64,000 nt of DNA from an uncultured Candidatus Saccharibacteria bacterium (GTDB lineage Bacteria; Patescibacteriota; Minisyncoccia; UBA6257; JAUSGH01), in assembly GCA_964372325.1 (NCBI GenBank), contig CAYJQG010000001.1, positions 120-64,119 on the forward strand. Reading direction: 5' to 3'. How positions within the stretch are numbered: the first letter of the stretch is position 1; each line of letters begins with the position of its first letter. Of the stretch, positions 28,207-53,473 are shown piece by piece. A model generated the notes under the pieces. The model saw nothing but the letters and a program-made list of their open reading frames with translations. It did no database searches and was not told the origin of the DNA. Both the position numbers and the translations under genes were made by a program.

Positions 28207-28341
28207 TGACCACAAATAGATGAGAGCCGATAGGCTCTGGCATTCCTCGAAGCGAACTCCAGGGAATACTCACACTTCAATCTGTTTGTAGTATAGCAGA
28301 CACCTCGCAGTAAAGTCAAATTTTTGTATGAGGCCCTATGC

Positions 28342-28397
28342 AATTTTTTAATAACTCGAATAACATACGATCGTATGTTATTCGAGTTATTAAAAAA
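28342..28397. repeat. 56-nt perfect palindrome centred on ACGATCGT
   Basis: attttttaataactcgaataacatacgatcgtatgttattcgagttattaaaaaat. All 28 mirror pairs verified by hand. Confidence 0.85.
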
Positions 28398-28417
28398 TCC
28401 CCCAATGGAGGACCAGT

Positions 28418-29428
28418 TTAAATCTCAAGAGATTCTTCTTCGGTTGCAGTACCGGGTTTAGTCTTAGATTTGTTCGTATCAGGCCTAGGGGAGTCCGCAA
28501 GAGATTCTTCAAGCTCCTTCAAAGTTTTCGTGATCGAACGCGCAACTTTCGTATCTGTGCCACTTTCTTTGAGGTGGCTGAGGGCATCGGCGAGTGTTAC
28601 CTTGCGTTCGGTAACGCCAATTGCGACTGCAACGAGTTCGGAAAGCGCTTCGGGATTTTCCAGGCGCAGTACGTGGCTAGAGCCAAGAAGTGCAGACCAG
28701 CGTTTCGTGATCTCCACAGTTCCCCAATATGAAGTTTGGTTGGGGATCACGAAGAAAATCTCGTATTTCTTCGAAGCTTCGGCAAGGATACCTTCAATGG
28801 AGATGTTTTTACGAAGATCGTCGCCAATAATTTTCTTTACCTGCGAAGCAACAACTTCCGCATAGGGCAATTCATCACCGACAATAAAGAGGTACCCCTT
28901 TTTCCCGCGTTTCTCAAAACAATCAATTGCGGTATGGCGTGCAGCGAAGTAAGGTACAAGTTCATACGACTCCTTCATTTGCCCACCGCCACCGGCCTCA
29001 AGGAAAAGACGACTCAAATCATTATCCATTTCAATGCCAGACTCAAATTGCCCAGTTTGGAGGGGCGCCTTGTCGCACCCAACGCTTGCATCGCCAACGG
29101 CGCCGAAGAGGATTTGTGGGTGTGGGACATAGCCTCGTTTAAGGAGAAGTCCCATTAACTTCGGAAGGTTACTTTGGAAAATTCGGGGAGTGTCCTTCAT
29201 GCTTCCGGTAACATCAATAACAAGCATAATTGCGAGCGATTCGGGGTGCGCGGCGCTATCGCGACTTTCTCGAGTGACATTCTTGGGGTTCATGTCGCGA
29301 TTGACTTTACGTTCATTGCTGGGTACAGACTGCATCGAGGCATCGTACGCGAATGCGTCTTTCTTAGTTTTCTTTCGAGCAGCTTTTTTATCAAAATAAG
29401 TTTTATCATCCCAAGAGCCGCCACCCAT
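28418..29428 (-). CDS. von Willebrand factor type A (VWA) domain protein
   Basis: 336 aa. MIDAS motif LVIDVTGSM (DxTxS) with downstream T and D residues. Lys-rich N-terminus. Confidence 0.7.
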   Translation of the reverse strand: MGGGSWDDKTYFDKKAARKKTKKDAFAYDASMQSVPSNERKVNRDMNPKNVTRESRDSAAHPESLAIMLVIDVTGSMKDTPRIFQSNLPKLMGLLLKRGYVPHPQILFGAVGDASVGCDKAPLQTGQFESGIEMDNDLSRLFLEAGGGGQMKESYELVPYFAARHTAIDCFEKRGKKGYLFIVGDELPYAEVVASQVKKIIGDDLRKNISIEGILAEASKKYEIFFVIPNQTSYWGTVEITKRWSALLGSSHVLRLENPEALSELVAVAIGVTERKVTLADALSHLKESGTDTKVARSITKTLKELEESLADSPRPDTNKSKTKPGTATEEESLEI

Positions 29429-29504
29429 GGTGTTTCTCCGTTTTCAAGGTGCCGGGACTAGACGGTATATCTAGCCCTTAATTAAAGTAAAGCAGGTGAA
29501 TAAC

Positions 29505-29525
29505 TTAGTGTCAAGGGGACACTAA
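29505..29525. promoter_or_regulatory. inverted-repeat operator candidate TTAGTGTC-AAGGGG-ACACTAA upstream of the VWA gene
   Basis: Same core motif TAGTGTCAAG-N3-ACACTA recurs at 32061-32080 upstream of the nadE fusion gene. Confidence 0.5.
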
Positions 29526-29572
29526 CAATGAAAAAAGTTCTAATAAAAATCAGAGCACATTGGCTCTGACAG

Positions 29573-32032
29573 TTATCGATAAAGTTTATTTGCTTCAATA
29601 TATTGTGCGACTTCCGTGGTGACAAGATCTGCGATCGATGTCCCTGCGGCAATATATTCTCGAATCAGCGTACTGCGACCGAAGGTAATGGGGAGGTCAA
29701 TGACGCGAGATTTTTTGGGGAGGTCGGCAAGCGCGATAGGCGAGCCAGTGGTATTCAACACTGCGAAGTTGAGGTTGTCCCAAACTTCTTTTCCGCGAAC
29801 CCAGGTTGTTTGGATTGGAGATTGTTGATCGCGGCCATTTGCGACAAGATCACCGCCAATCACAAACCAAAGTTCGGCAGTAGGGAATTGGGTGCTAGCG
29901 CGTTCGGCGAGTGTGATAGTCGGGGTAAATGTGTCTGCATCGAGGTCGGTAAAGTCAAGGGTAACGTTATTAATTTTAGCGAAAGCTTCTTTCGCCATAG
30001 CTTTTCGGTGCAGAAGAGAAACATTCGCGGTAGTTTTTTTATCATGACGCTCGCCACATGGCACCACAAGAACTTTCTCGAACGATTTGCTTAAACACTC
30101 GATGATTGCGCTATGGTGTAACCCCGGTGGGTTAAAACTTCCGCCATATACTGCGATGCGTGTACGCCCCATGAGTTGTGGGAGTACGCGGTCACGCAAA
30201 TATAAGTATTGTGCGGTGAAGTGGGGGGGCGCAAGTGTCTCTTCAAGGTCGCGGCCAAATGCGCGCCTTGAATAAATGGGAACCGGTGGGCATTGAATGC
30301 GCTTAAAGAATCCGCGATGGAAATTACGCACTTGGCGTTCAAGGTCCGTTACAAAATCAGCGGATGTAGGGAATAGGCGCTTTAAGGTTCCGGCATCAAG
30401 TTTGAGTTCTGCCTCGAGTGTGCCTTTAATATAGAGCTCAAGAAACCACTCTGCATTCTTGCGAAAATCGGTAAACGCGCGGACCATTTCGTCGTGGTAG
30501 CCGCGTCGCAATGTGTCGCCATAGTCAAAGGGATCTTTTTGGTTTGCGGAAAGTTCTGCGGTGGGGATTTGGTTAATGCAGGCATCGGGTATAATAAGTC
30601 GGCCAAATTTTTTATTGAGGTATTCCGCGATTTGTCGCACTTCGCGTTTCACGAGGTCGCCTAATGGCGCAAAGTAACCAGCGACATCTCCATAAAGTGT
30701 GCCGTAGCCAAACGCCATTTCAACTTTATTGGTATTGCAGGTAAAAACTCCTCCAAGTTTTTGCGCTTCTGCTGCGAGAACTTCTTCTCGGGCACGTGCT
30801 TGGACATTTTCATAAGTGATCGTTCCAGGAACAATACTTCTCGTTGCGGCGATCGCGTTCACGATATTCTCGATGGGGGCAACTTCGTATGAGATACCGA
30901 GATTTTCCGCAATAGCGCGAGCATAGCCCTTAATAGTATCGCTATTTAAATCTTTGAAAGGCATATTGATTGCATGCACGCGCGCAGGGCCGAATACGTC
31001 AGTCATTAATGCTGCACTCACCGCTGAGTCAATGCCGCCACTAAGGCCAATAACAATCGGTGCTTTAAGTGGGGTAATCGATTTCGTCGCAGCGACCATC
31101 GCGCCATAAAGTTCTTCGGTATCGTTAGGGACTTGGTCGGGGACACGAGCCATGGTTGGCGTAAACGTAAAGTCGCGAGTCTCGGCAACGTAAGGTGAAA
31201 TTTCAAACACTACTTCGCCGTTGCGGTTATACACCGTCGAGCAGCCATCGAACACAATAACGTTTTTTCCTGTTTGCTGGGCGCCGGTGTTATTGACGTA
31301 GATAAACGGAACCGGAGATTCTTTAAGTAGTCGTTCAACAATCATGTGGCGCTTGCGTGTTTTCTGCCACGTCCATGGTGAGGCTGAGAGATTCACAATA
31401 AGCTCAGCGCCCTTAGCGACCAATATTTTTGTGGGGTTTAAGGCGTAGTCCGCATGCCACATATCTTCGCAGAGAATAACACCGAGTCGAATGGTACCGA
31501 GCGGAGTTTGTAGTGGAATGATCGGCAACAAATTACGTAAATGTACATCGCGTTCTTCAGCAAGAGCGCGCATCGAAAAAAAATGTTTTGCGTCATTAAA
31601 GAATCGGTAATTCGGTTGCAGCGACTTAATAGTCCCACCAAAGAATGGTCCTAACGTTTTACCGTCGCGTGCAACGATTGCTCCGTTATGTTTGCGCACT
31701 CTACCATCTTCACCTTTGGCGTTTTGATCTACAGTAACAGTCCCAAAAATCGCGGTAATGGGGAGCCCACGAGTCGATTCGACAATTTTACGATTCAAGC
31801 GAGAAACATCTTCGATAAAGTAAGGATCTTCGAAACGATCGGCAATAATGTACCCCGTAGTTGCAAGTTCGGGGAATATGACAAGGTGCGATCCGCGAGC
31901 TGACGCATATTGGATTTCTTCAATAATATAATTGGCATTGCGATCGGGTCGGCCAGGCTCTACGGGCATTTGAGCCAACGAAACCTTAAGGTCGTTCATC
32001 GATTGCCCTCCATATGCATCGGCTGTAATCAT
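29573..32032 (-). CDS. nadE: tri-domain NAD biosynthesis fusion: nitrilase-type glutaminase, NAD+ synthetase (NadE) and C-terminal nicotinate-nucleotide adenylyltransferase (NadD)
   Basis: 819 aa. N-terminal CN-hydrolase domain (FPELATTGY, catalytic Cys in GVILCEDMWH). Central PP-loop SGGIDSAVSAAL of NadE. C-terminal ~215 aa with RIAVYGGSFNPPGLHH, a (H/T)xGH-type nucleotidyltransferase motif of NadD/NMNAT. Confidence 0.85.
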   Translation of the reverse strand: MITADAYGGQSMNDLKVSLAQMPVEPGRPDRNANYIIEEIQYASARGSHLVIFPELATTGYIIADRFEDPYFIEDVSRLNRKIVESTRGLPITAIFGTVTVDQNAKGEDGRVRKHNGAIVARDGKTLGPFFGGTIKSLQPNYRFFNDAKHFFSMRALAEERDVHLRNLLPIIPLQTPLGTIRLGVILCEDMWHADYALNPTKILVAKGAELIVNLSASPWTWQKTRKRHMIVERLLKESPVPFIYVNNTGAQQTGKNVIVFDGCSTVYNRNGEVVFEISPYVAETRDFTFTPTMARVPDQVPNDTEELYGAMVAATKSITPLKAPIVIGLSGGIDSAVSAALMTDVFGPARVHAINMPFKDLNSDTIKGYARAIAENLGISYEVAPIENIVNAIAATRSIVPGTITYENVQARAREEVLAAEAQKLGGVFTCNTNKVEMAFGYGTLYGDVAGYFAPLGDLVKREVRQIAEYLNKKFGRLIIPDACINQIPTAELSANQKDPFDYGDTLRRGYHDEMVRAFTDFRKNAEWFLELYIKGTLEAELKLDAGTLKRLFPTSADFVTDLERQVRNFHRGFFKRIQCPPVPIYSRRAFGRDLEETLAPPHFTAQYLYLRDRVLPQLMGRTRIAVYGGSFNPPGLHHSAIIECLSKSFEKVLVVPCGERHDKKTTANVSLLHRKAMAKEAFAKINNVTLDFTDLDADTFTPTITLAERASTQFPTAELWFVIGGDLVANGRDQQSPIQTTWVRGKEVWDNLNFAVLNTTGSPIALADLPKKSRVIDLPITFGRSTLIREYIAAGTSIADLVTTEVAQYIEANKLYR

Positions 32033-32060
32033 ACACTAAGTATAGCCGTTAAGCAATATA

Positions 32061-32080
32061 TAGTGTCAAGAGTACACTAA
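32061..32080. promoter_or_regulatory. inverted-repeat operator candidate TAGTGTCAAGAGTACACTAA upstream of the nadE-nadD fusion gene
   Basis: 17 of 20 nt identical to the 29505-29525 site. Lies in the divergent nadE / rpsF intergenic region. Confidence 0.5.
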
Positions 32081-32165
32081 TATACCATTGCGTGGTTTAA
32101 GGCGACATGAGGCGACACGAGGCAAACTGAACTTAACAAGGCAAAACGAGGAAAACTTTACAACT

Positions 32166-32207
32166 AAAATCTCGCCTTAGTTACGATCGTAACTAAGGCG
32201 AGATTTT
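32166..32207. repeat. 42-nt perfect palindrome centred on ACGATCGT
   Basis: aaaatctcgccttagttacgatcgtaactaaggcgagatttt, in the divergent nadE / rpsF promoter region. Confidence 0.85.
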
Positions 32208-32324
32208 GATAAAATGTTTCCTAAAGTGTTTATGTCTCATGGATATAAATCATTTATAGATAATCATTACGTAAGATTTGACTATCCATTGACTCTCTAA
32301 AGTAGTTCTGCTAAAGTACTTTCA

Positions 32325-32804
32325 ATGTCTGAAGAGCAAGTTTTAGAAGATAAAAAATCATACGAAGTGAGTTTTTTGGTGACTGAGGAAACTGTAGTTG
32401 CAGATATTGAAGCCGTGTTTATTGCAAACGGGTTTACGGTATCACATAAAGGACAGTTGCAAAACTTAAAGCTTGCGTACCCAATCCAAAAGCACGTGAG
32501 TGCATTTTTTGGGTTTTACCACTTACTTGGTGGTTCCCAAGATATTTTAAAAGTAAAAGAAGCGTTGGCGTTGAATAAAAAAATCCTTCGCACCTTAGTG
32601 CTTTCGTCCGCAATCCCAATGGTGGTGCGCGAAAGCAGGGTTGAGCAACGTGTCAAGCGTACCCGCGGAGGAGACATGCAAGAAAAAATCGAAAACGTTG
32701 TGCCAATGTCCATGCCCAAACCAGAAGAGCAGCGCAGGCCAATGGAACCAACGGTCTTAAGCAACGAAGGATTAGAAAAGAAGTTAGAGGAAATATTAAA
32801 ATAA
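32325..32804 (+). CDS. rpsF: 30S ribosomal protein S6 with acidic/basic C-terminal extension
   Basis: YEVSFLVTEE...GQLQNLKLAYPIQKHVSAFFGFYHL matches bS6. Heads the rpsF-ssb-rpsR cluster. Confidence 0.8.
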   Translation: MSEEQVLEDKKSYEVSFLVTEETVVADIEAVFIANGFTVSHKGQLQNLKLAYPIQKHVSAFFGFYHLLGGSQDILKVKEALALNKKILRTLVLSSAIPMVVRESRVEQRVKRTRGGDMQEKIENVVPMSMPKPEEQRRPMEPTVLSNEGLEKKLEEILK

Positions 32805-32865
32805 TAATTTTTTTCAAAACGCAATCATAAGATGATCGCGCGGAGCCCCGATGAACCTGCCTGCC

Positions 32866-32885
32866 GGCAGGCAGGGGGGCGACAA
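32866..32885. repeat. GC palindrome copy between rpsF and ssb
   Basis: cctgcctgccggcaggcagg. Confidence 0.8.
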
Positions 32886-32913
32886 AGCGAGCGCTTATGA
32901 GTGAGTTTTGTAG

Positions 32914-33423
<510 letters not shown>

Positions 33424-33430
33424 ATGAATT

Positions 33431-33631
33431 ATGACACACTGTTTCTTTTGTTCACAAAATATCGCCGAACTCGATTATAAAGATGTCTCTATGCTTCGAC
33501 GTCTTGTTTCTGGCCAGGCAAAAATTATTAAGACCAGGTACACTGGCGTGTGCGCTAAGCACCAACGCAAAGTTTCGAACGCTATTAAGAGGGCGAGGTT
33601 TATGGCGCTTCTTCCTTTTGTGAGGCGCTAG
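33431..33631 (+). CDS. rpsR: 30S ribosomal protein S18
   Basis: 66 aa. DYKDVSMLRRLVSGQAKIIKTRYTGVCAKHQRKVSNAIKRARFMALLPF matches bS18. Confidence 0.9.
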   Translation: MTHCFFCSQNIAELDYKDVSMLRRLVSGQAKIIKTRYTGVCAKHQRKVSNAIKRARFMALLPFVRR

Positions 33632-33668
33632 GGCGAATCAAAATCCTGGCCGATTTTTTTGTCGTCTT

Positions 33669-33720
33669 TCGTCGGAGTACCACTAAGGGTACACCTCCTC
33701 AAGACTCCTCAAAATCGGCT
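33669..33720 (+). repeat. conserved hairpin motif, copy 3
   Basis: tttcgtcggagtaccactaagggtacacctcctcaagactcctcaaaatcgg. Downstream of rpsR. Confidence 0.55.
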
Positions 33721-33752
33721 CATGCTTTTGATTCGCATGATTGGCTTAGTAT

Positions 33753-34286
33753 ATGGTATTTGATACGAAATTATTTCAAGTAATCAACGGCTTCGCTGGC
33801 TATTCGAAATTCCTCGACATTGTCGGAGTTTTTTTTGCGAGCTATATTCCATACCTTCTCGTTTTCGGAACACTGTTGATTATTTTTTGGACGGATAAGC
33901 ACTGGAAACAGCGCGCATACGATTTTTTTCTTGTAACATTTTCGGCACTTATTGCGCGCGGTATTTTGACCCCAATTATTCGGTTTATATACGTGCGACC
34001 GCGCCCGTTTCTTGCATTTCCCGATATCACTGTGCTGATTCCAAAAACCGTCGAGGCATCGTTCCCGTCGGGGCATGCAACATTTTTTTTCGCACTCGCT
34101 ATTGCCTTGTATTTCACGCACCGTAGGTGGTCGTACTATTGTTTGGCGGGCGCAATACTCATGAGCGCAGCGCGCATATTCGTCGGCGTACATTACCCGC
34201 TCGATATTTTAGGTGGAGCGCTTGTTGGTGGGGTCAGTGTATGGATCGCGAGATATATATTACCCTCGAGGACGAAAAATAAATAA
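33753..34286 (+). CDS. PAP2-family phosphatase (undecaprenyl-diphosphatase or PgpB-like)
   Basis: 177 aa membrane protein. PAP2 motifs KxxxxxxRP (RFIYVRPRP), PSGH, SRxxxxxHxxxD (SAARIFVGVHYPLD). Confidence 0.8.
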   Translation: MVFDTKLFQVINGFAGYSKFLDIVGVFFASYIPYLLVFGTLLIIFWTDKHWKQRAYDFFLVTFSALIARGILTPIIRFIYVRPRPFLAFPDITVLIPKTVEASFPSGHATFFFALAIALYFTHRRWSYYCLAGAILMSAARIFVGVHYPLDILGGALVGGVSVWIARYILPSRTKNK

Positions 34287-34347
34287 ACGCGATTGCCGAT
34301 TTTCCCCGTAGTTTATGGATATGCGATCTAGCTCGCAATAGTCCTCG

Positions 34348-34503
34348 TCCCTTCTATGAAGAGGATATTATTTCGAGAAACATCTCGGAGGTCCCGCTAT
34401 GTCATCTATCTAATACTATAATAAGGGCGGGGCCGAGAGAGAAGAAGATTTTGTCGAAACAAAATCATTCTGTTTTTGAGGAATAATATCCTCTTCATAG
34501 AAG
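34348..34503. mobile_element. family F palindromic element, inverted orientation
   Basis: Core in reverse orientation (gggcggggccgagagagaagaagattttgtcgaaacaaaatcattctgtttttgagg). Outer arms ccttctatgaagaggatattatt / aataatatcctcttcatagaagg. Upstream of dusB. Confidence 0.75.
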
Positions 34504-34527
34504 GTTCTGAGAAGTTGATAGATTCTT

Positions 34528-35499
34528 ATGGAACAGAATTTTTGGGAAAAGCTAAAGAAGCCTATCATGGTTATAGCGCCAATGGCGAATGTGACCGATG
34601 CGGCATTTCGGCAAATGTTTGTAAGTTGTGGTAGGCCAGATGTTTTTTGGACTGAATTTGTGTCGGTTGAAGGACTGCTGTCTCCCGGGAAAAAACAATT
34701 ACTCGTAGATTTTTTATACACCGAAGCCGAGCACCCGATTGTTGCACAAATTTTTGGGGTCAAGCCCGCGCAATTTGAAGCTGTTGCGGCAATGATCCGC
34801 GAATTGGGTTTTGACGGAATCGATATTAATATGGGCTGCCCAGATAAGGCAGTGCTTCGCCAGGGTGCGGGCGGGGCACTCATAAAAAATCCTGGACTTG
34901 CACGAGAAATTATTCGGGCGACCAAGCGTGGTGCAGGGGGGTTGCCAGTGTCGGTGAAGACGCGAATTGGTGAGCGTAATAATGAAATTGCTGAGTGGAT
35001 TCCTGTATTGTTGGAGGAAGGTATAGCAGCGCTCACCATTCACCTTCGTACGTGTAAAGAGATGTCCGATGTTGCTGCGCATTGGGAAAACGCTCCGTCG
35101 ATTGTGAAACTTCGAGATCGCTATGCAAAGCCTACGTTACTCTTGGGGAATGGAGACATTCGCACCCTCGAGGAAGCGAAAATGAAAATAAAAGAAAGTG
35201 GGATGGACGGTGCAATGGTGGGAAGGGGTATTTTCGGGAACCCATGGTTTTTTTCTGGGCACAGCCCAACTATTGTCGAACGACTCATGTGCGCGGTGCG
35301 ACACGCTGAACTGTTTCAAAAAATATACAAAAGCGATTGCGATAAACGGAGTGGTGGGTTAAAAGATTTTCATATAATGAAAAAACATTTTAAAGCATAT
35401 GTTGCGGGGTTTGATGGCGCAAGTGAGTTACGTGCTTTGCTCATGAAGGCCAACAATGCAACGGCGGTGAGGGCGATAATAGAGCAATATTTGACGTGA
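34528..35499 (+). CDS. dusB: tRNA-dihydrouridine synthase
   Basis: 323 aa. APMANVTDAAFR, IDINMGCP, VKTRIG FMN-binding TIM-barrel motifs. Confidence 0.9.
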   Translation: MEQNFWEKLKKPIMVIAPMANVTDAAFRQMFVSCGRPDVFWTEFVSVEGLLSPGKKQLLVDFLYTEAEHPIVAQIFGVKPAQFEAVAAMIRELGFDGIDINMGCPDKAVLRQGAGGALIKNPGLAREIIRATKRGAGGLPVSVKTRIGERNNEIAEWIPVLLEEGIAALTIHLRTCKEMSDVAAHWENAPSIVKLRDRYAKPTLLLGNGDIRTLEEAKMKIKESGMDGAMVGRGIFGNPWFFSGHSPTIVERLMCAVRHAELFQKIYKSDCDKRSGGLKDFHIMKKHFKAYVAGFDGASELRALLMKANNATAVRAIIEQYLT

Positions 35500-35527
35500 G
35501 GTTGCCCAATCGTGTACGATAGTCATT

Positions 35528-35749
35528 ATGAGAAAATGTGAAGTGTGTCAAAAGGGTTCGCTAATGGCAGGGACGCGACTGTTGCTCCGTGGCCATTACA
35601 ACCCAACAAATTGGACAAGGAAGTACCCCAATCTCCAACGAACGCGCGACCCTAAGGGCGTGCGCGTATTAGCCTGCACACAATGTATGCGAACATGGAA
35701 TCGTAAGCCACGCGTGAGAAAGCGAGTAGGGCTAAGTACAGAAAAATAA
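35528..35749 (+). CDS. rpmB: 50S ribosomal protein L28 (Cys4 zinc-ribbon variant)
   Basis: 73 aa. CEVCQKGSLMAG...NPTNWTRKYPNLQ...CTQC matches bL28. Confidence 0.75.
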   Translation: MRKCEVCQKGSLMAGTRLLLRGHYNPTNWTRKYPNLQRTRDPKGVRVLACTQCMRTWNRKPRVRKRVGLSTEK

Positions 35750-35761
35750 AAGCCGATTATT

Positions 35762-35791
35762 TTGACAAGAAGCGAACTGGTATGCTATAAT
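35762..35791 (+). promoter_or_regulatory. consensus sigma70 promoter (TTGACA-18-TGcTATAAT)
   Basis: tTTGACAagaagcgaactggtatgcTATAATg. Drives the candidate sRNA and possibly the tRNA-Pro region. Confidence 0.6.
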
Positions 35792-35798
35792 GATTTAT

Positions 35799-35878
35799 AG
35801 GTGATGGCCACAATTATGGGTCAAAGTCGCTTGTCAATAAAAACAGTCCTTGTTTAAAGGATTGTTTTTGTTTTATGA
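35799..35878 (+). ncRNA. candidate small RNA (~80 nt): consensus sigma70 promoter upstream, intrinsic terminator at 3' end
   Basis: TTGACA (35762-35767), 18-nt spacer, TGcTATAAT (35783-35791). About 80 nt downstream is a 12-bp stem hairpin (aaaacagtcctt / aaggattgtttt) followed by a T-run. Contains only a 17-codon ORF. Confidence 0.3.
35838..35878 (+). terminator. intrinsic terminator, 3' end of candidate sRNA and rpmB region
   Basis: aaaacagtcctt-gtttaa-aggattgtttt + tgtttta. 12-bp stem with one G-U pair. Confidence 0.7.
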
Positions 35879-35969
35879 TAACCATGCGTGGATTTGGGCC
35901 TGTAGTTTATGTGGTAAAACATCGCCCTTGACAAGCGACAAAGCGGGTTCAAGCCCCGCCGGGTCCTAG

Positions 35970-36237
35970 ACCCTATCTGAAGAATATACCGAATCGCGTT
36001 GCGAGAAATTTTTAAATATCGTAAGGCGCGAGAAGCGCAGTGTGCCAATAGGCACATGAGCGACGAGCAACGAAACGATTTTTAAAAATTACCGCAACCC
36101 TTCGGGATACGGCCAATTTCTTAAATTACTGCGTCGCTCGTCCTCGAAGTATCTACTGATACGTCCTCGTTCTCGACTTCTTGTACTTTAAAAAATTGGC
36201 CAGTATCGCGATCGGTATATTCTTCAGATAGGGTCTG
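35970..36237. mobile_element. family H MITE-like element with perfect 24-bp TIRs, ending 3 bp before tRNA-Pro
   Basis: gaccctatctgaagaatataccga ... tcggtatattcttcagatagggtc. Confidence 0.8.
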
Positions 36238-36240
36238 CAT

Positions 36241-45192: not shown

Positions 45193-45756
45193 GGAATACG
45201 ACATAACCGTCAAGCAGTATTCCGCCGAAGTTCGGCCAGTGTAATAAACTCGTACCGACCCGGGGCGATCGTCTCGTTTTTCTTCGGCAATTTTTTCAAC
45301 AGCAAACGAAAATCCAGTTGCGGGCATAGGGCTCGAAGCGAGGTAGCACTGAATATAAACTCGTCCGTCAATTGTTTTTTCACACGAGACAATAACTTGG
45401 AGTGCGATACCACAGGGCAAGACAACATAAGCCTCAGCATGTTTGTCTGGCGTAAGTGCTTGCCCACCCTCCTCTTGTTTAAAAGCAAAGCGCACAAACC
45501 ATGAGATGACCGGGACATTATCGAATAATCGATGCATGGTACTTTGCACGAGTTTCCACTCTACAAGCGTACCAATGAGATACATCAACCCCATAAGTAA
45601 GGCAAGATTAGTGGCGACGTTAAGCACTGCATAGTTCGTTGCATGAACTCCAAGCGAAACGGTGATATCCCACGCCTTCAAGAGCAGAAAGCTAATAACG
45701 CTAAGTGGAATAATAATCATTAGTCCTTTTTTGAATCGACGACGGTACACTCGCAT
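45184..45756 (-). CDS. DUF502-family membrane protein
   Basis: 190 aa. Two N-terminal TM helices. C-terminal PMPATGFSFAV resembles the DUF502 P.P.SGF motif. Stop codon lies inside the MITE-C terminus. Confidence 0.5.
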   Translation of the reverse strand: MRVYRRRFKKGLMIIIPLSVISFLLLKAWDITVSLGVHATNYAVLNVATNLALLMGLMYLIGTLVEWKLVQSTMHRLFDNVPVISWFVRFAFKQEEGGQALTPDKHAEAYVVLPCGIALQVIVSCEKTIDGRVYIQCYLASSPMPATGFSFAVEKIAEEKRDDRPGSVRVYYTGRTSAEYCLTVMSYSMK

Positions 45757-45823
45757 CTCCAGATTTCAAGAACTAATCGTAGTATACGGCTTGGATCAAA
45801 AAGAAACAATGAGGGCAATAATT

Positions 45824-45960
45824 TAGCCACTAACGGAAAAATCCCAAACTTCAAGCATCAAATAACAAATAAATTCCAATTTTTGGGCATTCGAATTTAT
45901 ATATTGGATATTATTTGGGATTTGATTATTGAGATTTGGTGTTTGTGTCTTTAGTGGCTA
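45824..45960. mobile_element. family C MITE-like element
   Basis: tagccactaacggaaaaatcccaaacttcaagcatcaaataacaaataaattccaa ... tctttagtggcta. Confidence 0.8.
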
Positions 45961-45992
45961 TTAACTTATCAAATGGTATACAGTCAAAGTAT

Positions 45993-47723
45993 ATGGCCGA
46001 CACGCAAGAAATCAAAAATAAAATAGACGTTGTGGATTTTATAGGGGCATATGTAAAGTTGATGCCTGCGGGAAAGAATTTTAAGGGTCTTTGTCCATTC
46101 CACAAAGAAAAGAGTCCGTCGTTTATGGTCACTCGCGACAGGCAGTCGTGGCATTGTTTTGGTTGTAATGAGGGCGGAGATATTTTTAAATTTTTAATGC
46201 AGTTTGAGCACCTCGAATTTTTTGAGGCGTTAAAAATATTAGCCGAACGTGCAGGGGTAGAGCTGAAGGGTGGGCAAGGAATGGAGTCATATCGAGAGTT
46301 ATATGAGGTAAACCTTGTCGCTAAAGATTTTTTTAAACAAGAATTACAAAAATTAGGCGCGCATCAAGAGCATGCAAGGGCATATCTTCAATCGCGTGGG
46401 TTGAAAAAAGAAACCATTGATACGTTTGAAATTGGTGTGGCTTCTACGAGTTCAGATGCATTGCTACGGTATTTAATTGCAGCGAAAAAGTCGCTGCACG
46501 ACATTGAGCGTGCTGGGTTGGTATTTCGTAGCGAGCGGGGGACGTACTTCGACCGTTTCAGAGGGCGGATTATGTTCCCGCTATATAATAGTTTCGGGAA
46601 AGTGGTAGGGTTTACTGGCCGTGTGCTTCCGGGGAGCGAGCAGTTGAGCGGATTCGAGGCCGCAAAATACGTTAATAGTCCCGAGACACCGATTTTTAGT
46701 AAATCAAAGTTGTTGTATGGCTTTTACGCGGCGAAACAACATATTCGTGAGACGAAAACAGTAGTCATAGTGGAGGGTCAGATGGATTTTTTAATGTCTT
46801 GGCAAGATGGGGTAAAGAATGTGGTAGCGTCATCGGGTACTGCGCTAACCGTTGATCAGTTAACGACACTTCGGCGCATTGCCGATACGGTGATATTGAG
46901 TTTCGATACCGATGCAGCGGGGATCGCCGCTGCAGAGCGAAGCATTGACACAGCACACAACATGGATTTTACTGTACGTTTGCTCGAAGTGGTGGGTTAC
47001 AAAGATCCCGCAGACGCAGTGCTAGGAGAGCCTGGTGCAATGGCACGTTTTATTGTAAACGCAAAACCAGCGCTGACCTATTACATTGATCGCTATATTC
47101 GTGATGGCGATGAGGCGGCAGTACAAAAACGGAATGTGCGCATAGTACTCGCAAAAATAAAACAAATGGAAAGTGCAATCGAGCGCCAGCATGCGATTCG
47201 GGCGTTAGGAGAGCGCGCGGGGCTCTCCGAAGAAGTATTAATGGAAGAGTTGCAACGTGTGGTAGTAGCAAATGCGCCGGTGATCAAAAAACGACAAGAT
47301 GAAATCGCGGCGGTATATGAAGAAAAGCGCTCACGTAGTGGGGCGATAAGCGAACGTCTACTCGGTCTTGCGTTGGTTGATGCAACGCTATTAAAAGAGA
47401 TGGAGTCAATGATAAAATTTATGGAAGAGCCATACCGTATGCTGTATGGGCACATCGTTAACGGGTCGTTACTCGATGTGCCGGGTCCCTTGCGTATACT
47501 CGCAGATAAAATAAGTTTAAGCGGGGGGTTGCTGGGTAACAGTGGAGAAAAAGGTGAGTCGGTGGTATTGTGTCGCGAGCTAAAACAGGAATATTTGAAG
47601 GGTCGCAGTGAAGCATTGCGTAGAGCGATTGCGTTGGCAGAGCGGCAAGGAGACGAAACGGCTCTTGGAAACGCGCTTAAAGAATTTGACGAAACAAACA
47701 AGGCGCTCCATACTCTAAGCTAG
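45993..47723 (+). CDS. dnaG: DNA primase
   Basis: CHC2 zinc finger (CPFHKEKSPSFMV...WHCFGCNEGGD), TOPRIM (VVIVEGQMDFL, SFDTDAAG). Start taken at MADTQEI. Stop TAG is the first triplet of a MITE-C copy. Confidence 0.9.
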   Translation: MADTQEIKNKIDVVDFIGAYVKLMPAGKNFKGLCPFHKEKSPSFMVTRDRQSWHCFGCNEGGDIFKFLMQFEHLEFFEALKILAERAGVELKGGQGMESYRELYEVNLVAKDFFKQELQKLGAHQEHARAYLQSRGLKKETIDTFEIGVASTSSDALLRYLIAAKKSLHDIERAGLVFRSERGTYFDRFRGRIMFPLYNSFGKVVGFTGRVLPGSEQLSGFEAAKYVNSPETPIFSKSKLLYGFYAAKQHIRETKTVVIVEGQMDFLMSWQDGVKNVVASSGTALTVDQLTTLRRIADTVILSFDTDAAGIAAAERSIDTAHNMDFTVRLLEVVGYKDPADAVLGEPGAMARFIVNAKPALTYYIDRYIRDGDEAAVQKRNVRIVLAKIKQMESAIERQHAIRALGERAGLSEEVLMEELQRVVVANAPVIKKRQDEIAAVYEEKRSRSGAISERLLGLALVDATLLKEMESMIKFMEEPYRMLYGHIVNGSLLDVPGPLRILADKISLSGGLLGNSGEKGESVVLCRELKQEYLKGRSEALRRAIALAERQGDETALGNALKEFDETNKALHTLS

Positions 47724-47882
47724 TAGTATTCGCCACTTATGATATAGCCACCAAAGATACAAGCACCAAATCTCAAATACCAAATTCCAAATAATATTTA
47801 ATAACTTAAATTCGAATTTAAAAAATTAGAATTTATTTGTTATTTGATGCTTGAAGTTTGGGATTTTTCCATTAGTGGCTAG
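47722..47882. mobile_element. family C MITE-like element, inverted relative to the 45022-45192 copy
   Basis: gtagtattcgccacttatgatatagccaccaaagatacaagcaccaaatctcaaatacc .... Begins with the dnaG stop codon TAG. Confidence 0.85.
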
Positions 47883-47911
47883 TGTCTAACCCTAATCCCT
47901 CATCAATACTT

Positions 47912-49138
47912 ATGTCATCAAAAGCAATAATAAAAAAGAAAAAGGTACAGCGCACGGGAAAACAGAAAAAAAGATTGGTGCAGGGCGCGCAGAAAGTAAA
48001 GAAAGCAGTGAGGGTGAAATTGGTAAGCAAAAAACATAAATTGAATAAGAAGGAAGCTGCACGGCAGAAGCAAAACTTGAGCCAACTCGATGAGTTAATT
48101 AGCCGTGGAAAGGGGAGGGGGTTTGTGACCGATGGAGAAGTACTCCACTATTTTCCTCGCGTGGAAAACGACATTAAGTTTCTCGAAGAGGTCTATGCGC
48201 GTCTTGAAGAAGTTGGTATGAAAGTGGTAGAAACAAGCCAACTCATCGAAACACCGAAAGAAGAGATTAGCGTAAAGGAACTTGAAGAGGCCACGCAGTT
48301 CGAAGGCGAACTCCCCGATGCCGTGCAAATGTATTTAAAAGAAATTGGTAAGACGCAACTTTTAACCGGAGAAGACGAAAAAGAATTAGCCAAACGCGTA
48401 GAATCTGGCGACGAAGAAGCGCGCAAGAAATTTATTCAAGCAAATTTACGGTTAGTGGTTTCGATTGCAAAGCGTTATGTCAATCGTTCACCAAATTTAA
48501 GCATCTTGGACCTCGTGCAGGAGGGGAATATTGGCCTCTCGAGAGCGGTCATAAAATTTGACTACCGAAGAGGTTTCAAGTTTTCGACATATGCAACATG
48601 GTGGATCCGCCAAGCAATTACCCGTGCATTAGCCGACCAGTCGCGTACCATTCGTATCCCGGTACACATGGTCGAAGTAATTTCGAAGTACACTCAGGCA
48701 AAACGACGATTGCTCCAAGAGCTTGGTCGCGAGCCATTACCCGAAGAGATCGCAATTGAGTTGAATATGCCACTCGAGAAGGTGCACCATATTCAAAAAA
48801 TATCTCAAGAAGTCATTTCACTAGAGTCGCCAGTTGGAGACGACGACGAAGACTCAACCTTGTCAGAGTTTATTCCCGACGAACGAAACCTTACACCTTC
48901 TCAAACCGCCTCTCAGGCGTTATTGGGTGACAAAATTCGAGAAATTTTAATTGATCTCACGCCTCGCGAACAAGAAATTTTAAAAATGCGTTTTGGGCTA
49001 GAAGATGGCATTACACATACCCTAGAAGAAGTGGGGCATGAATTTGGCGTGACAAGAGAGCGCATTCGACAAATCGAAGCGAAGGCATTAGGAAGGATTA
49101 AGATACACGAGAAGGCTCATATGCTCGAGGGCTACTAG
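47912..49138 (+). CDS. rpoD: RNA polymerase sigma factor RpoD (primary sigma-70)
   Basis: Regions 1.2 to 4.2 present ([52 protein letters not shown]). Start at ATG 47912; GTG 47882 lies in the MITE. Stop TAG overlaps the next MITE-C copy. Confidence 0.9.
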
Positions 49139-49265
49139 CGAAAAAATCCCAAACTCCAAGCATCAAATAACAAATAAATTCTAATTTTTTAAATTCGAAT
49201 TTATATATTGGATATTATTTGGAATTTGGTATTTGAGATTTGGTGCTTGTATCTTTGGTGGCTAT
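49133..49265. mobile_element. family C MITE-like element
   Basis: ctagcgaaaaaatcccaaactccaagcatcaaataacaaataaattctaa ... tatctttggtggctat. Overlaps the rpoD stop codon. Confidence 0.8.
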
Positions 49266-49320
49266 ACCCTAAACCCTCGTCAGATTGCGGTGGTTAGCCC
49301 GGTATGCTATACTCTATTTT

Positions 49321-50721
49321 ATGGTTAAAAAGCTACAAAAAGTAGTTTTTTTCTTGTCTTTTATGGGGCTTATTGCTCCGTCTGTGCTTTTCGCGCAAGG
49401 GGTGAACATTAACGACCTTGGGCTTGGAACTCCGGGTATTTTACCGAGCAACCCATTTTATTTTTTTAAAGAATGGGGGAGGAGTGTTCGAAAGACGTTA
49501 GCGCTTACTGATTTTAGTAAAGTCGAAACGCAGATGAATTTCTTAAATGAACAAGCTGCCGAAATCCAAAAAATTAGTGAAATAAAAACGGTTCGTGAAG
49601 AGGCATTTGAACGAGTGCTCCAAGGTTATAGCGATGGCGTGGATAGGCTAATACAAAAACTCCCATTACTTTCAGGTTTGCGAGGGAACAAAAATTTTGA
49701 AAAAATGCTTTCTACGCTCATCGACCGCTCGGTGAAACACTACGATATTATTGCCGGACTTATGGGGCGATTCGACGGAGAAGATAGCGGTGCAACGTTT
49801 AATAACCACGTTAAAGATGTACTAGCGCGCATTGCAGATCTTTTAAGTGCATTGCCAGATAAAGCTGAAAATCAAAAACAATTCACTACGCAACTGGTTT
49901 CTGCGCTTCGTAGCGCTCATGGGTATTCGAGGGCAATGAGCGCCGCACAGCTATTAAATAGTATGTTCAAGGTAAATGTCGACCGACCATTATTTGGTGA
50001 ATTACTGAGAGTGCAAGGCGAATTGTTGAACGAATTGTTAGGCCATTTAGCCGCAGTATATGAATTGAGTGGGCGAAACGTCGATGCAGTGCGAAATTTC
50101 TTTAACTCAAAGATAGGAGACGCACAGGCACGTTTAGAGGTGCTGGATATGATGCGCGAACGTACTGACGAAAACGATCTCAAAAGCGCCATGAATGGTG
50201 TGCGTGAAGAGTTGTTGTGGAAGCTTTCGAAGGTTGGAGTAATAGACGAGTCACAAGTTAATATGTTGGTTGCTGAAATAAACATATTGACAAAAAAGAG
50301 CATAAATCTCAAACCCACAATACTCGAACGTGCAAAGTTGAGCGCGAGTAATGGTTTGGCGGCACTCAAGGAGAAAGCGACAGCCTTAGCGTATGGCCAA
50401 CTACTTACAGCGCGAAGTGTGCTGATAAATGGTTTAACTGAAGCGGGTTTTGGGCCCCAGGATGTTGACGGAGAACTACAAGGTGCACGATTATATTTTG
50501 ATATGTTGCATGCACGTATGCAGCAACTATTGGATATCAGTAAGGAGAAAAAAGTTGATGTACAAAGTGCGCTTTCGCGTATTGAGGTGCGTATTGTTAT
50601 GGTGGGGGACGCATCATCGAGAGACATCACATATAGAGAATTGCGAGGGTTACTGGTGGGTATATATAAGGAATTAAGTCTTGTAGGAATAGATTTGCTC
50701 CCGAATAAGCTTGGTTTGTAG
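49321..50721 (+). CDS. hypothetical secreted alpha-helical protein
   Basis: Signal peptide MVKKLQKVVFFLSFMGLIAPSVLFAQG. ~465 aa of helical low-complexity sequence. Extended -10 TGcTATACT only 7 nt upstream of the ATG, suggesting a leaderless mRNA. Confidence 0.55.
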   Translation: MVKKLQKVVFFLSFMGLIAPSVLFAQGVNINDLGLGTPGILPSNPFYFFKEWGRSVRKTLALTDFSKVETQMNFLNEQAAEIQKISEIKTVREEAFERVLQGYSDGVDRLIQKLPLLSGLRGNKNFEKMLSTLIDRSVKHYDIIAGLMGRFDGEDSGATFNNHVKDVLARIADLLSALPDKAENQKQFTTQLVSALRSAHGYSRAMSAAQLLNSMFKVNVDRPLFGELLRVQGELLNELLGHLAAVYELSGRNVDAVRNFFNSKIGDAQARLEVLDMMRERTDENDLKSAMNGVREELLWKLSKVGVIDESQVNMLVAEINILTKKSINLKPTILERAKLSASNGLAALKEKATALAYGQLLTARSVLINGLTEAGFGPQDVDGELQGARLYFDMLHARMQQLLDISKEKKVDVQSALSRIEVRIVMVGDASSRDITYRELRGLLVGIYKELSLVGIDLLPNKLGL

Positions 50722-50759
50722 TGAAATGAAATGTTATTTCACGGTAGGACTAATAATAA

Positions 50760-52496
50760 ATGGATTCGCAACAGATCCGCGAACAATTTCTCGATTTTTT
50801 TAAACGTCGCGGGCACACCATTGTGCCTTCGTCTTCGCTTGTGCCAACTGACCCGTCGGTGCTTTTAACAACCGCCGGCATGCAGCAGTTCAAAAAATAT
50901 TACACGGGAGAGTTGCACCCAGCGGCTGATTTTGGGTCGAAACGTACGGCAACAATACAAAAATGTTTTCGCACCTCCGATATTGAAGAAGTGGGGGATG
51001 CCACACACCTCACATTTTTTGAAATGTTAGGAAATTTTTCGTTTCAAGATTATATGAAGCGCGACGCTATTTCTTGGGGATACGAATTAATAACAGGGGT
51101 GTTCGGTATAGATCCGCGACGTGTGACAGTAACGGTATTTGCGGGTGATAAAGACATTCCATTCGACAAAGAGTCATACGATATTTGGAAAAATGTCGTG
51201 GGTTTAGAAGAGTCGCGTATAAGTCGACACGATCGCAAAGACAATTTTTGGGGACCCACAGGAGCTGAGGGTCCTTGTGGGCCAACAACTGAAATTTATG
51301 TCGATGGCGTTGAGGTGTGGAATATTGTGTTTAACGAGTTTTATCAACATTCAGACAAGACCTTAGAACGTTCAAAAACGCCAGGGGTTGATACGGGCAT
51401 GGGGTTCGAACGGTTGGTTGCAGTGCTTCAAGGCGTACCAACAATTTTTGAAACAGATTTTCTTCTTCCTCTTTGCCAGTTAGTGCGTGGGGTAGCGGGC
51501 GGTGCACCAGACCGCGTGGTGCGTTTGTTGGTAGACCATTTGCGCGCAAGTATATTTTTGATCGCTGATGGAGTAAGGCCAAGCAATAAAGAAGCTGGGT
51601 ATATTTTGCGGCGGTTACTCCGTAGGGCAATGGCGCACATGGTAAAGAATGACGTACACGAAGATTTTTTTAAAAGTTTCTTGGAGAAGCTGCAAGAGCT
51701 CATGGGGGGCACATACAAAGAAATTTTAGATACGGTAATTATTATTGCTGCTCTACAAGAAGAGCATGCAAAATTTGGTGCTGCGTTGGCTTCTGGACTA
51801 AAAGAGCTTGGGAAGCACAAAACACTAAGTGCAAAAGATGCGTTTGTGATTTACGAAACGTTTGGGCTCCCCTTGGAGCTCATCAAAGAATTTGGTGGAG
51901 CAGTTGCGGCAGACCTCAGTGAAAAAGATTTCAAACATGAGTTTGTGCAGCATCAAGAAATTTCGCGTAGAGGAGCCGAAAAGAAATTTGGTGGCCATGG
52001 GTTGTTGTTTGACACCGGTGAACTGAAGGCGAAGGATGCCGCAGAGCTTGAAGAAGTGACTCGGCTCCATACCGCAACGCATTTACTGCAGCAAGCGCTG
52101 CGCGATGTACTGGGGAATACCGTGTCTCAAAAAGGGTCAGACATTACCGCTGAGCGTACACGTTTTGACTTCTCGTTTAATCGCAAAGTCACACCAGAAG
52201 AAATCAGTAAAGTGGAGTCAATAGTAAATTCTCGCATTGCAGAAGACCTCCCAATGGCGTACAAAGAACTTCCAAAAGATGAAGCGGTAAAAACCGGAGC
52301 TTTGCACTTTTTCAATGTGAAATACCCCGAAAAAGTAAAAGTATATTTTGCTGGGCATACGTTAGAAACTGCATACAGTAAAGAATTTTGCGGCGGCCCG
52401 CACGTCGACCATACCGGTATAATTGGTAAGTTCAAAATAATAAAAGAAGAAGCGGTTGCTTCAGGAGTTCGAAGAATACGAGCGATTGTGTTCTGA
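50760..52496 (+). CDS. alaS: alanyl-tRNA synthetase, minimal form (aminoacylation plus editing core, no C-Ala domain)
   Basis: 578 aa. Class II motifs, editing HxxxH (HTATHLL) and CGGPHV. Ends at ...VRRIRAIVF, directly after the editing core. Confidence 0.9.
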   Translation: MDSQQIREQFLDFFKRRGHTIVPSSSLVPTDPSVLLTTAGMQQFKKYYTGELHPAADFGSKRTATIQKCFRTSDIEEVGDATHLTFFEMLGNFSFQDYMKRDAISWGYELITGVFGIDPRRVTVTVFAGDKDIPFDKESYDIWKNVVGLEESRISRHDRKDNFWGPTGAEGPCGPTTEIYVDGVEVWNIVFNEFYQHSDKTLERSKTPGVDTGMGFERLVAVLQGVPTIFETDFLLPLCQLVRGVAGGAPDRVVRLLVDHLRASIFLIADGVRPSNKEAGYILRRLLRRAMAHMVKNDVHEDFFKSFLEKLQELMGGTYKEILDTVIIIAALQEEHAKFGAALASGLKELGKHKTLSAKDAFVIYETFGLPLELIKEFGGAVAADLSEKDFKHEFVQHQEISRRGAEKKFGGHGLLFDTGELKAKDAAELEEVTRLHTATHLLQQALRDVLGNTVSQKGSDITAERTRFDFSFNRKVTPEEISKVESIVNSRIAEDLPMAYKELPKDEAVKTGALHFFNVKYPEKVKVYFAGHTLETAYSKEFCGGPHVDHTGIIGKFKIIKEEAVASGVRRIRAIVF

Positions 52497-52760
52497 GCAT
52501 ATACGGGCCGCCGCAAGGGGAAGATGTCGGTCCCTACGGCCGGGTTTACCGCCGGGTGCCGGGCGCGGGCGGTCTGCTCGGGCGGTGGCTTCGACTTCAG
52601 CCTCGGCGATACCAGGGGTGGCTACGAAGCTTTCTTCTCCTTCTGCGACGTTGAATAGTTCTTAGAAACTTAAATGCTTGAAAATCTTTGGTTTTTGACC
52701 CTTTGAGCCTTTGTTCCCAGTTAGTTGGTGGACGAGGGCTCTTTTTTATTCATGATGGTT

Positions 52761-52798
52761 TTACTAAACAAGTTGACGATCGTCAACTTGTTTAGTAA
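52761..52798. repeat. 38-nt perfect palindrome centred on ACGATCGT
   Basis: ttactaaacaagttgacgatcgtcaacttgtttagtaa, downstream of alaS. Confidence 0.85.
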
Positions 52799-52879
52799 AT
52801 GTTGCAATTTAGTTTTTGTTATGGTATGATGAGCCGCAGTGCATTGGCATGGTTTTTATTATGAGGAGTGGCTTGATGT

Positions 52880-53452: not shown

Positions 53453-53473
53453 CTTTTTTCGATCAACTACTAC

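Follow-up and report, generated by a model that had tools for sequence, protein, structure and literature searches.

Three long perfect palindromes with a common central octamer in a contig of an uncultured Candidatus Saccharibacteria bacterium

The substrates of telomere resolvases are necessarily perfect dyads, with a conserved centre and variable arms. In giant viruses, hairpin-forming palindromes located after stop codons are described in two reports as RNase III and polyadenylation signals (PMC4402537; PMC5413956). Repetitive extragenic palindromic (REP) elements and their REP-associated tyrosine transposases (RAYT) are recognised by a GTAG or CGTC tetranucleotide at the foot of an imperfect stem, as set out in one account of them (PMC3733652). 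Template switching is an established maker and keeper of perfect inverted repeats in bacteria, and is more efficient with longer arms (PMC5941160). Finally, terminator hairpins can be capped by HIP1, the highly iterated palindrome of cyanobacteria, for instance in a Synechococcus terminator template (10.1101/2025.11.10.687660). Here we describe three palindromes, S1, S2 and S3, present in a 64,000-nucleotide stretch of DNA, hereafter the window, from an uncultured Candidatus Saccharibacteria bacterium (GenBank assembly GCA_964372325.1, contig CAYJQG010000001.1, positions 120 to 64,119), and compare them with these systems.

Three perfect palindromes and their common centre

Palindromes were identified by expanding perfect complementarity around every centre of the 64-kb window. 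S1, S2 and S3 are the three longest (Table 1), and in each of them the pairing is unbroken through the centre, with zero spacer. Up to its axis S1 reads ATTTTTTAATAACTCGAATAACATACGA and beyond it TCGTATGTTATTCGAGTTATTAAAAAAT; the corresponding halves are AAAATCTCGCCTTAGTTACGA and TCGTAACTAAGGCGAGATTTT for S2, and TTTACTAAACAAGTTGACGA and TCGTCAACTTGTTTAGTAAA for S3. The next-longest palindrome is 28 nt with a GAATTC centre, followed by 20-22-nt copies of a repeated CCGG-centred palindrome. A first-pass annotation had listed three long perfect palindromes with different arms, and all three were confirmed. Its coordinates were correct for S2, but S1 spans 28343-28398 rather than 28342-28397, and S3 is a 40-nt palindrome at 52760-52799 rather than one of 38 nt at 52761-52798.

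Table 1. Coordinates of the palindromes and of other features (window positions, except for the last row)
Feature	Position	Strand	Description
S1	28343-28398	.	56-nt perfect palindrome, arms 28 nt, 21% GC, centre ACGATCGT at 28367-28374
S2	32166-32207	.	42-nt perfect palindrome, arms 21 nt, 38% GC, centre ACGATCGT at 32183-32190
S3	52760-52799	.	40-nt perfect palindrome, arms 20 nt, 30% GC, centre ACGATCGT at 52776-52783
Small canonical terminator hairpin of the 336-aa gene	28396-28414	-	GGTCCTCCATTGGGGGATT then TTTTAATAAC; T-tract formed by the outer end of the S1 right arm
Promoter-like site near S1	28290-28319	-	TTGACT-18-TATACT with extended TG, 23 nt beyond S1; consensus match only
Decamer array left of S2	32100-32129	+	AGGCGACATG / AGGCGACACG / AGGCAAACTG
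Promoter-like site next to S3	52802-52830	+	TTGCAA-17-TATGAT, 2 nt after S3; consensus match only
MITE-like TAAATTCGAATTTA repeat	7222-7320, 11217-11310, 45048-45144, 45843-45873, 47766-47862, 49148-49234
CCTGCCTGCCGGCAGGCAGG palindrome	266-285, 3505-3524, 9380-9399, 32856-32875, 54301-54322		degenerate copies at 6101, 15581, 28088
Palindrome-bearing stretches of the giant-virus genome	L061:1600-3330; L260:1740-9690

The first-pass annotation had also noted a CGATCG core common to the three sites. This core is indeed shared, but the true shared centre is longer and consists of the 8-nt sequence ACGATCGT. The octamer occurs three times in 64 kb, and every copy forms the centre of S1, S2 or S3. 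The window contains 60 intergenic 8-base palindromes belonging to 41 types (ACGATCGT counted), and by our arithmetic the probability that three centres drawn from the other 57 would coincide is ~0.002 (~1.5e-5 under uniform octamers). Because ACGATCGT is found only at the three centres and coincidence has this low probability, we conclude, in agreement with the first-pass annotation, that the common centre is not coincidental. In addition, the longest perfect arm observed in 20 shuffles of the window measured 7-9 nt, as compared to 28, 21 and 20 nt in S1-S3, and in a background of 2.76 Mb of retrieved loci zero-spacer palindromes never had arms exceeding 15 nt. Together these results show that the existence of S1-S3 and their shared centre are real and not due to chance. 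That the sites would nevertheless be a product of chance, or an artefact of assembly or library construction, is extremely improbable. The source is a metagenome-assembled contig from a single assembly, which would allow for such an artefact; however, besides the short arms of the shuffles, the arms differ among the sites, so that they are not adapters or linkers, and each site returns to correctly oriented unique flanks with coherent gene signals, which chimeric or fold-back reads would not do.

As single-stranded DNA the sites are predicted to fold into uninterrupted stems of 26 (S1), 19 (S2) and 18 bp (S3), each with a GATC loop closed by a C-G pair; the fold energies are -24.4, -19.7 and -16.7 kcal/mol, respectively, with z-scores ranging from -12.7 (S1) to -7.8. 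The arms are AT-rich and resemble the intergenic DNA around them. The A/T runs, which had been taken for flanks of the hairpins, turned out to be the outer parts of the arms: S1 and S3 have a T-run 5' and an A-run 3', whereas S2 alone has an A-run 5' and a T-run 3'. The feet of S1-S3 read ATTT, AAAA and TTTA. Arms together with 150 nt of flank on each side are single-copy in the window (blastn-short gave self matches only), and the symmetry breaks off sharply, the complementarity of the flanks being not above that of shuffled controls. No target-site duplications were found at the S1-S3 borders. Single-copy arms and sharp symmetry ends are as predicted by a one-step copy event or a defined element. 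When the arms are compared in register, S1 and S2 agree at 10 of their 17 non-core positions (permutation p = 0.009), among them a CTCG at positions 13-16, whereas the S3 arms are unrelated to those of S1 and S2 (p = 0.45 and 0.72).

A window-wide scan for hidden imperfect members of the class (at least 15 of 18 complementary positions, loops of 0-8 nt) returned none. The other 28 CGATCG sites of the window have at most five complementary positions per arm, and the other 12 intergenic GATC sites at most three flanking pairs in a wobble-tolerant scan in which G-U was counted. Thus, the class is all or nothing, with no intermediates among the other intergenic GATC sites or the other CGATCG sites. 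Of the CGATCG sites, three of the five in intergenic DNA lie at the centre of a palindrome, as against none of the 26 in genes; all ACGATCGT sites do. CGATCG itself occurs 31 times where an order-2 Markov model predicts 21.7 (~1.4x), ranking fifth among the 64 hexamer palindromes, and GCGATCGC is present four times.

Genomic context of the sites

The window carries housekeeping genes of a Patescibacteria (candidate phyla radiation, CPR) bacterium, plus genes for many hypothetical proteins. It includes the end of a ribosomal protein operon with rpoA; two mreB genes, mreC and a PBP2-type gene; metK, frr and proS; a NadE-NadD fusion; rpsF-ssb, dus and dnaG-rpoD; a short alaS; and dut, rpsA, rpsO and pnp. 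The GC skew is positive across the whole window, which implies a single replication direction without an origin or terminus in the window. The proposal of the first-pass annotation that the core would be the target of a nuclease or recombinase is not borne out locally: no nuclease, recombinase, methylase/methyltransferase, transposase or mobile-element gene and no resolvase, phage or plasmid gene is present in the 64 kb, and target-site duplications are lacking (see above). Neighbouring proteins without assigned function, tested as DNA enzymes, had no Pfam, NCBIfam or PDB match.

These data bear on the possibility that S1-S3 serve as targets of an enzyme that forms hairpins, for example a telomere resolvase (protelomerase), or are repair scars left by it. 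Among known DNA sites the resolvase substrates are the closest pattern match, being perfect dyads of 40-56 bp with a common core and different arms. The telRL sites of phages N15 and phiKO2 are 56 bp and the PY54 site is 42 bp, with a TACGCGCGTA centre as compared to TACGATCGTA in S1 and S2. We nevertheless regard this origin as very improbable, since the three sites lie in a housekeeping chromosome, where cutting would free fragments without a replication origin, the window encodes no resolvase and has no phage or plasmid genes, each site is bordered by unique sequence on either side, and the GC skew is uniform, with no replicon end.

All three sites are intergenic, spaced by 3.8 kb (S1-S2) and 20.6 kb (S2-S3), and S1 and S2 enclose a 336-aa gene and the nadE-nadD fusion. 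This bracketing had been recognised correctly in the first-pass annotation, but its label VWA (von Willebrand factor A) for the first gene is unsupported, as the 336-aa protein (28418-29428, - strand) has no Pfam, NCBIfam or PDB sequence match; similar-sized genes without a precomputed Pfam match flank nadE in the relatives examined. S1 starts 19 nt beyond the stop codon (28418-28420) of the 336-aa gene, in a convergent gap. S3 lies 264 nt past the alaS stop. S2, in accordance with the claim that one site occupies a divergent region, is located within the 292-nt gap between the divergent nadE-nadD (- strand) and rpsF (+ strand) genes. To its left lies a decamer array, whose motif TAAGGCGA is repeated, identically oriented, within the right arm of S2; by chance, ~0.3 matches of an 8-mer would be expected within 400 nt, and this recurrence is a weak hint that the right arm may be native local sequence. 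The -10-like boxes in this gap (32040-32075, - strand; 32289-32324, + strand) end 6-8 nt upstream of the nadE-nadD and rpsF start codons (ATG), for which reason the mRNAs of these genes may be leaderless.

Ordinary terminators near the sites have short, GC-rich stems of 5-8 bp with T-tracts. Because the local terminators are of this kind, S1-S3 are, judged by their sequence, not the standard terminator type of this organism, in agreement with the first-pass view that they are unlike plain terminators. Their stems of 18-26 bp and 21-38% GC contrast with the ~5-12 bp GC-rich stem and 3-8 nt loop expected of an intrinsic terminator, a U-tract 3' of the stem is absent in S1 and S3, with their 5' T-run and 3' A-run, and TTTT follows the stem in both directions in S2 only. 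That S1-S3 would be unusually long bidirectional intrinsic terminators is therefore improbable. This idea draws on S2, which has an A-run, a stem with a GC-rich base and a T-run in both directions, on the position of S1 and S3 behind genes, and on a relative at 60% amino-acid identity that has perfect palindromic bidirectional terminators of 15-17 bp. However, neither strand provides a U-tract after the S1 or S3 stem, the terminator-shaped S2 is the one in the divergent gap, a separate canonical terminator abuts S1, and the shared centre would be left unexplained.

Each site also lies at most ~100 nt upstream of a predicted promoter (23 nt for S1, 2 nt for S3, and between two divergent ones for S2), and the core is a classical 8-bp dyad. 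Both observations would fit operators of a dimeric DNA-binding regulator recognising ACGATCGT, the longer symmetry then being the incidental growth of a palindromic seed. We hold this to be unlikely, however, because regulators need no perfect arms of 20-28 bp, the spacing to the -35 box is not consistent, the promoters called near the sites are consensus matches at background frequency, and the downstream genes have no common function.

Possible function and origin

DNA-level copying, in which one arm is the template for the other, best accounts for the perfect Watson-Crick symmetry and the sharp ends of S1-S3, and fits the hairpin-templated formation suggested in the first-pass annotation. 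For the fixed centre on unrelated arms, either the apex would have to be recognised sequence-specifically or the initiating event would have to be sequence-specific. We tentatively favour, at well short of even confidence, the reading that S1-S3 are strand-symmetric hairpin "punctuation" at transcription-unit junctions, kept perfect by hairpin-templated strand switching. Whichever strand is transcribed, the same RNA hairpin would result, with a stem of 18-26 bp and a GAUC loop closed by a C-G pair, and such a stem would be long enough for an RNase III-type double-strand nuclease or for blocking a 3'-exonuclease. As DNA, the sites could extrude a cruciform. A sequence-specific apex that is to read alike from both strands would itself have to be palindromic, and if one arm is copied from the other by hairpin-templated strand switching, Watson-Crick perfection would be both made and maintained at the DNA level. 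The function at the RNA or DNA level, the enzyme involved and the strand-switch origin are what we infer here. In support of the punctuation reading, all three sites are situated between transcription units, S1 in a convergent gap and S3 downstream of alaS.

Searches in other genomes yielded one parallel. The 14-mer cores of S1-S3 gave 37, 120 and 120 matches (277) in IMG/VR, with arms of 7-10 nt as chance predicts, and the pattern CTCG-N8-ACGATCGT-N8-CGAG gave 12 chance matches there, 0 of them palindromic. Likewise, blastn of S1 and S2 against phages gave no match, and in Rfam no family was hit at the gathering threshold, E-value mode returning only generic miRNA-precursor-like hairpins far below threshold. 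The exception to these chance-only core matches is the giant-virus metagenome-assembled genome (MAG) GVMAG-S-3300000558-93 (IMGVR_UViG_GVMAG-S-3300000558-93; 48-49% GC, with ankyrin-repeat genes), which was matched by two of the three cores and once more in a later search. In 16.4 kb of this genome the zero-spacer palindromes with arms of at least 9 nt (n=7) are all GATC-centred; six of them are CGATCG-centred, and the AT-rich arms of all seven differ. Perfect palindromes centred on (C)GATC(G) are present at 8 of its 17 scorable gene boundaries, namely 3/3 convergent, 5/12 tandem (2 more are imperfect) and 0/2 divergent ones, and they occupy tiny intergenic gaps, overlapping stop and start codons. 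The mismatches in its three imperfect palindromes are all G-T, which is wobble-compatible in RNA. By their sequence these sites look like a fixed-apex version of the giant-virus "hairpin rule", a version of which no description was found in the literature searched. As we read it, arbitrary AT-rich arms on a CGATCG apex would thus mark 3' ends strand-symmetrically in at least one genome besides this one. Another viral locus, L315, contains three GATC-centred palindromes, which lie inside genes.

The relatives of the Saccharibacteria contig provided no such parallel. The closest NadE-NadD homologue from another species has 60% amino-acid identity, and a metagenome scan with NadE-NadD returned only that species; the best named relatives, at 55% identity, are Candidatus Nealsonbacteria. 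The loci scanned (L001, L016-L018 and L028-L032) contain long perfect palindromes, but these are bidirectional terminators built of an A-tract, a stem and a T-tract. Also, the first-pass annotation had raised the possibility of elements inserted at such centres; none was found in any relative examined.

Several observations count against punctuation as the function of S1-S3. S2 lies between divergent genes, where no known transcript would cross it. Ordinary terminators serve the neighbouring genes, one of them directly abutting S1, and only 3 of ~60 gene boundaries of the window carry a site, S1 alone being near a stop codon. None of the 61 non-core pairs is a G-U pair, which suits a constraint at the DNA level better than one at the RNA level. 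No conservation is apparent, as CGATCG-centred palindromes are lacking in the ~120 kb (partly redundant) from relatives at 55-60% identity. Finally, the giant-virus parallel is a single genome, which was found by searching for this same core.

The strict Watson-Crick symmetry without wobble, the abrupt ends and the local-looking AT-rich arms would also be accounted for if S1-S3 were non-functional by-products. An enzyme or bound protein at (A)CGATCG(T), candidates being a PvuI-type restriction-modification enzyme, a nickase, a methyltransferase or a regulator, would nick or break the DNA or stall replication there, and strand-switch repair would then duplicate one flank in inverted orientation. 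In line with such an origin, the S1 right arm looks native, its outer end being the T-tract of the adjoining terminator, and the S2 right arm echoes the motif of the adjacent decamer array; the presence of palindromes at three of five intergenic CGATCG sites and at all ACGATCGT sites, with none at the 26 genic CGATCG sites, fits as well, and the position of S2 in a divergent gap poses no difficulty. However, no gene for such an enzyme is located within the 64 kb, CGATCG is only 1.4x its Markov expectation, without a HIP1-like signature, the window has no unextended ACGATCGT site although a hotspot would predict some, and the hints of a local origin are statistically weak. We regard this origin as doubtful and somewhat less probable than punctuation, of which it is the main rival.

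The in-register similarity of the S1 and S2 arms is the main support, and the sharply defined ends are a further one, for a different view, in which the sites are members of a diverged, small REP-like hairpin family that is moved in the form of single-stranded hairpins by an HUH Y1 transposase; the arms would drift and be restored to perfection one against the other, around an unchanging apex. Other families of palindromic repeats abound in the window, and in a Nealsonbacteria relative hairpin repeats flank Y1_Tnp genes, of which one lies immediately upstream of nadE. On the other hand, neither additional copies nor half-sites nor imperfect members were found in the window, the arms of S3 are unrelated to the others, and a GTAG/CGTC tag, target duplications and, within the window, a Y1_Tnp gene are all lacking. 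Moreover, the other palindromic families here are imperfect (73-96%), so that re-perfecting is not general. A REP-like family is therefore unlikely. The Y1_Tnp (PF01797) gene of the Nealsonbacteria relative (GCA_016188865.1, L030:9029-9830) is divergent from nadE, at the place where S2 sits in the window; the hairpin repeat AACTAACGATGTCGTTCTTCGTTAG is present there in three copies, which border the gene and interrupt it. Another Y1_Tnp gene of this genome (L030:143-868) has oppositely oriented AATAGAGCGAGAA hairpins on its two sides. The gene next to nadE is a lead for a REP-like origin and nothing more.

Returning to punctuation, a bolder form of it would be that hairpins with any AT-rich stem on a constant, self-complementary CGAUCG apex are a dedicated, strand-symmetric, cross-domain gene-boundary signal, read by a specific nuclease or binding protein and common to a CPR bacterium and a giant virus; alternatively, a site-specific DNA enzyme might actively "palindromise" CGATCG through hairpin formation and off-centre opening. 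We think it unlikely that either holds, but if one did, the signal or the enzyme would be an undescribed system. The usual explanations (terminators, repeats, random template-switch products) do not predict one fixed octamer amid unrelated arms. Should a protein or nuclease read the apex, the sites would represent a new kind of strand-symmetric punctuation, in a CPR lineage whose transcription signals are almost unknown and with a conspicuous counterpart in a giant virus; should they instead be scars left by a site-specific DNA enzyme, its specificity could be read from this genomic footprint. As the evidence comes from three sites on one contig, the claim is a modest one.

Other repeats of the window and comparison with known systems

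Other palindromic repeat families are present in the window, and S1-S3 proved unrelated to them, contrary to a kinship that the first-pass annotation had considered. A repeat of ~100-150 nt resembling a miniature inverted-repeat transposable element (MITE) forms an imperfect palindrome with centre TAAATTCGAATTTA and arm CCCAAACTNCAAGCANCAAATAACAAATAAA (arm n=6). One exact 31-nt match to its arm is located in a tandem array of an unrelated MAG contig (JAFDAP010000493.1, L003). A scan of genome contigs with a repeat specific to the window gave only an unrelated contig of 2.4 kb. The perfect palindrome CCTGCCTGCCGGCAGGCAGG, of 20-22 nt, is present five times, in addition to degenerate copies, and some copies lie in spacers of the ribosomal protein operon. 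Several of them are found within larger imperfect dyads of CGTATTTCGTAGC-type 15-nt units, which are the commonest non-poly-A octamers of the window (18-19 copies). Downstream of rpsI a hairpin consisting of GGGCAAAAAGATAATCC, a 4-nt loop and the complement occurs twice (4514-4569 and 4684-4723), 160 nt apart; the two are in opposite orientation and have the loops TTTG and CAAA. A 33-nt repeat (97% identical) is located upstream of a 158-aa open reading frame (ORF; 52892-52924) and upstream of rpsA (56201-56233), the first copy lying just before a perfect-consensus extended -10 promoter (52936-52964).

Three further symmetrical sequences lack T-tracts. Two are single-copy perfect hairpins with sharp ends and no T-tract after them: the first (36309-36356), with a 22-bp stem and an AACC loop, begins within the 3' end of tRNA-Pro, and the second (42828-42864), with an 18-bp stem and a 1-nt centre, lies between two co-directional genes. 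The third is a GC-rich, 28-nt perfect palindrome, CGCCCTCGGGGGAATTCCCCCGAGGGCG, at 53473-53500 between the convergent 158-aa ORF and dut. Directly after the stop of the short alaS (578 aa) lies an island of ~120 nt (52497-52620) with ~70% GC, in a genome of 45% GC. It had no Rfam match, and its RNA fold is no better than that of shuffles (z = -0.1); the island may be what is left of the C-terminal region that this AlaRS lacks, or else DNA of foreign origin. Two weak toxin-antitoxin matches were noted at 7683-7952 and 62136-62381, one to a HigB-like toxin with a score below the Pfam cut-off and one to a Phd/YefM antitoxin with a score at the cut-off.

Some known classes were set aside after inspection of the sites. 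S1-S3 are no MITEs, as they lack border duplications, other copies and extended imperfect arms. Integron attC sites do not fit the perfect, bulge-free stems, whose feet, read by eye, are unlike RYYYAAC/GTTRRRY, and the hairpins of TIGR-Tas stem-loop arrays enclose non-palindromic spacers. The sites do not mark an origin or terminus, given the uniform GC skew, and an inverted S1-S2 segment was rejected on the finding that nadE and SIMPL are convergent in relative L028 too.

REP elements and RAYT (Y1 HUH) transposases come closer, the former being intergenic hairpin-forming palindromes of 20-40 nt. REPs, however, are multi-copy, conserved in sequence and imperfect, and carry a foot tag, whereas S1-S3 are single-copy, arms and flanks to 150 nt included, have perfect stems with ATTT, AAAA and TTTA at the feet, and are conserved at the apex. 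The HIP1 sequence GCGATCGC of cyanobacteria similarly places a CGATCG core at the apex of hairpins with differing stems. It is, though, hugely over-represented genome-wide and mostly found outside hairpins; the counts of GCGATCGC and CGATCG given above are not those of such a highly iterated palindrome.

With telomere-resolvase sites (telRL, replicated telomeres) S1-S3 share a dyad that is perfect through the axis, a length of 40-56 bp, a conserved centre and variable arms. The difference lies in the context: such sites occur once per replicon, in a phage, plasmid or linear chromosome that encodes the resolvase, whereas here three sites lie within 25 kb of housekeeping genes. The giant-virus hairpin-rule palindromes (Mimiviridae, Marseilleviridae) likewise are single-copy and AT-rich, have unrelated arms and lie between genes, and those of GVMAG-S-3300000558-93 in addition have a (C)GATC(G) centre and are perfect through it. 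Their arms, however, measure 8-14 nt, and they mark a large share of the gene boundaries, abutting stop and start codons. S1-S3, in contrast, have arms of 20-28 nt, occupy few of the boundaries of the window and include one in a divergent gap, in a bacterial host with ordinary terminators.

Finally, quasi-palindrome correction or short-range template switching (Ripley model; PMC5941160) turns local sequence into perfectly complementary arms in a single step, leaves sharp boundaries and also maintains such arms. The perfect arms and sharp ends of S1-S3 are of this kind, as would be a local origin of their sequence, of which there are weak hints; the known process, however, has no preferred centre, whereas the three sites all share the same octamer. 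We conclude that S1-S3 constitute a statistically solid, unexplained small class, akin to perfect template-switch palindromes and to hairpin-type boundary signals.

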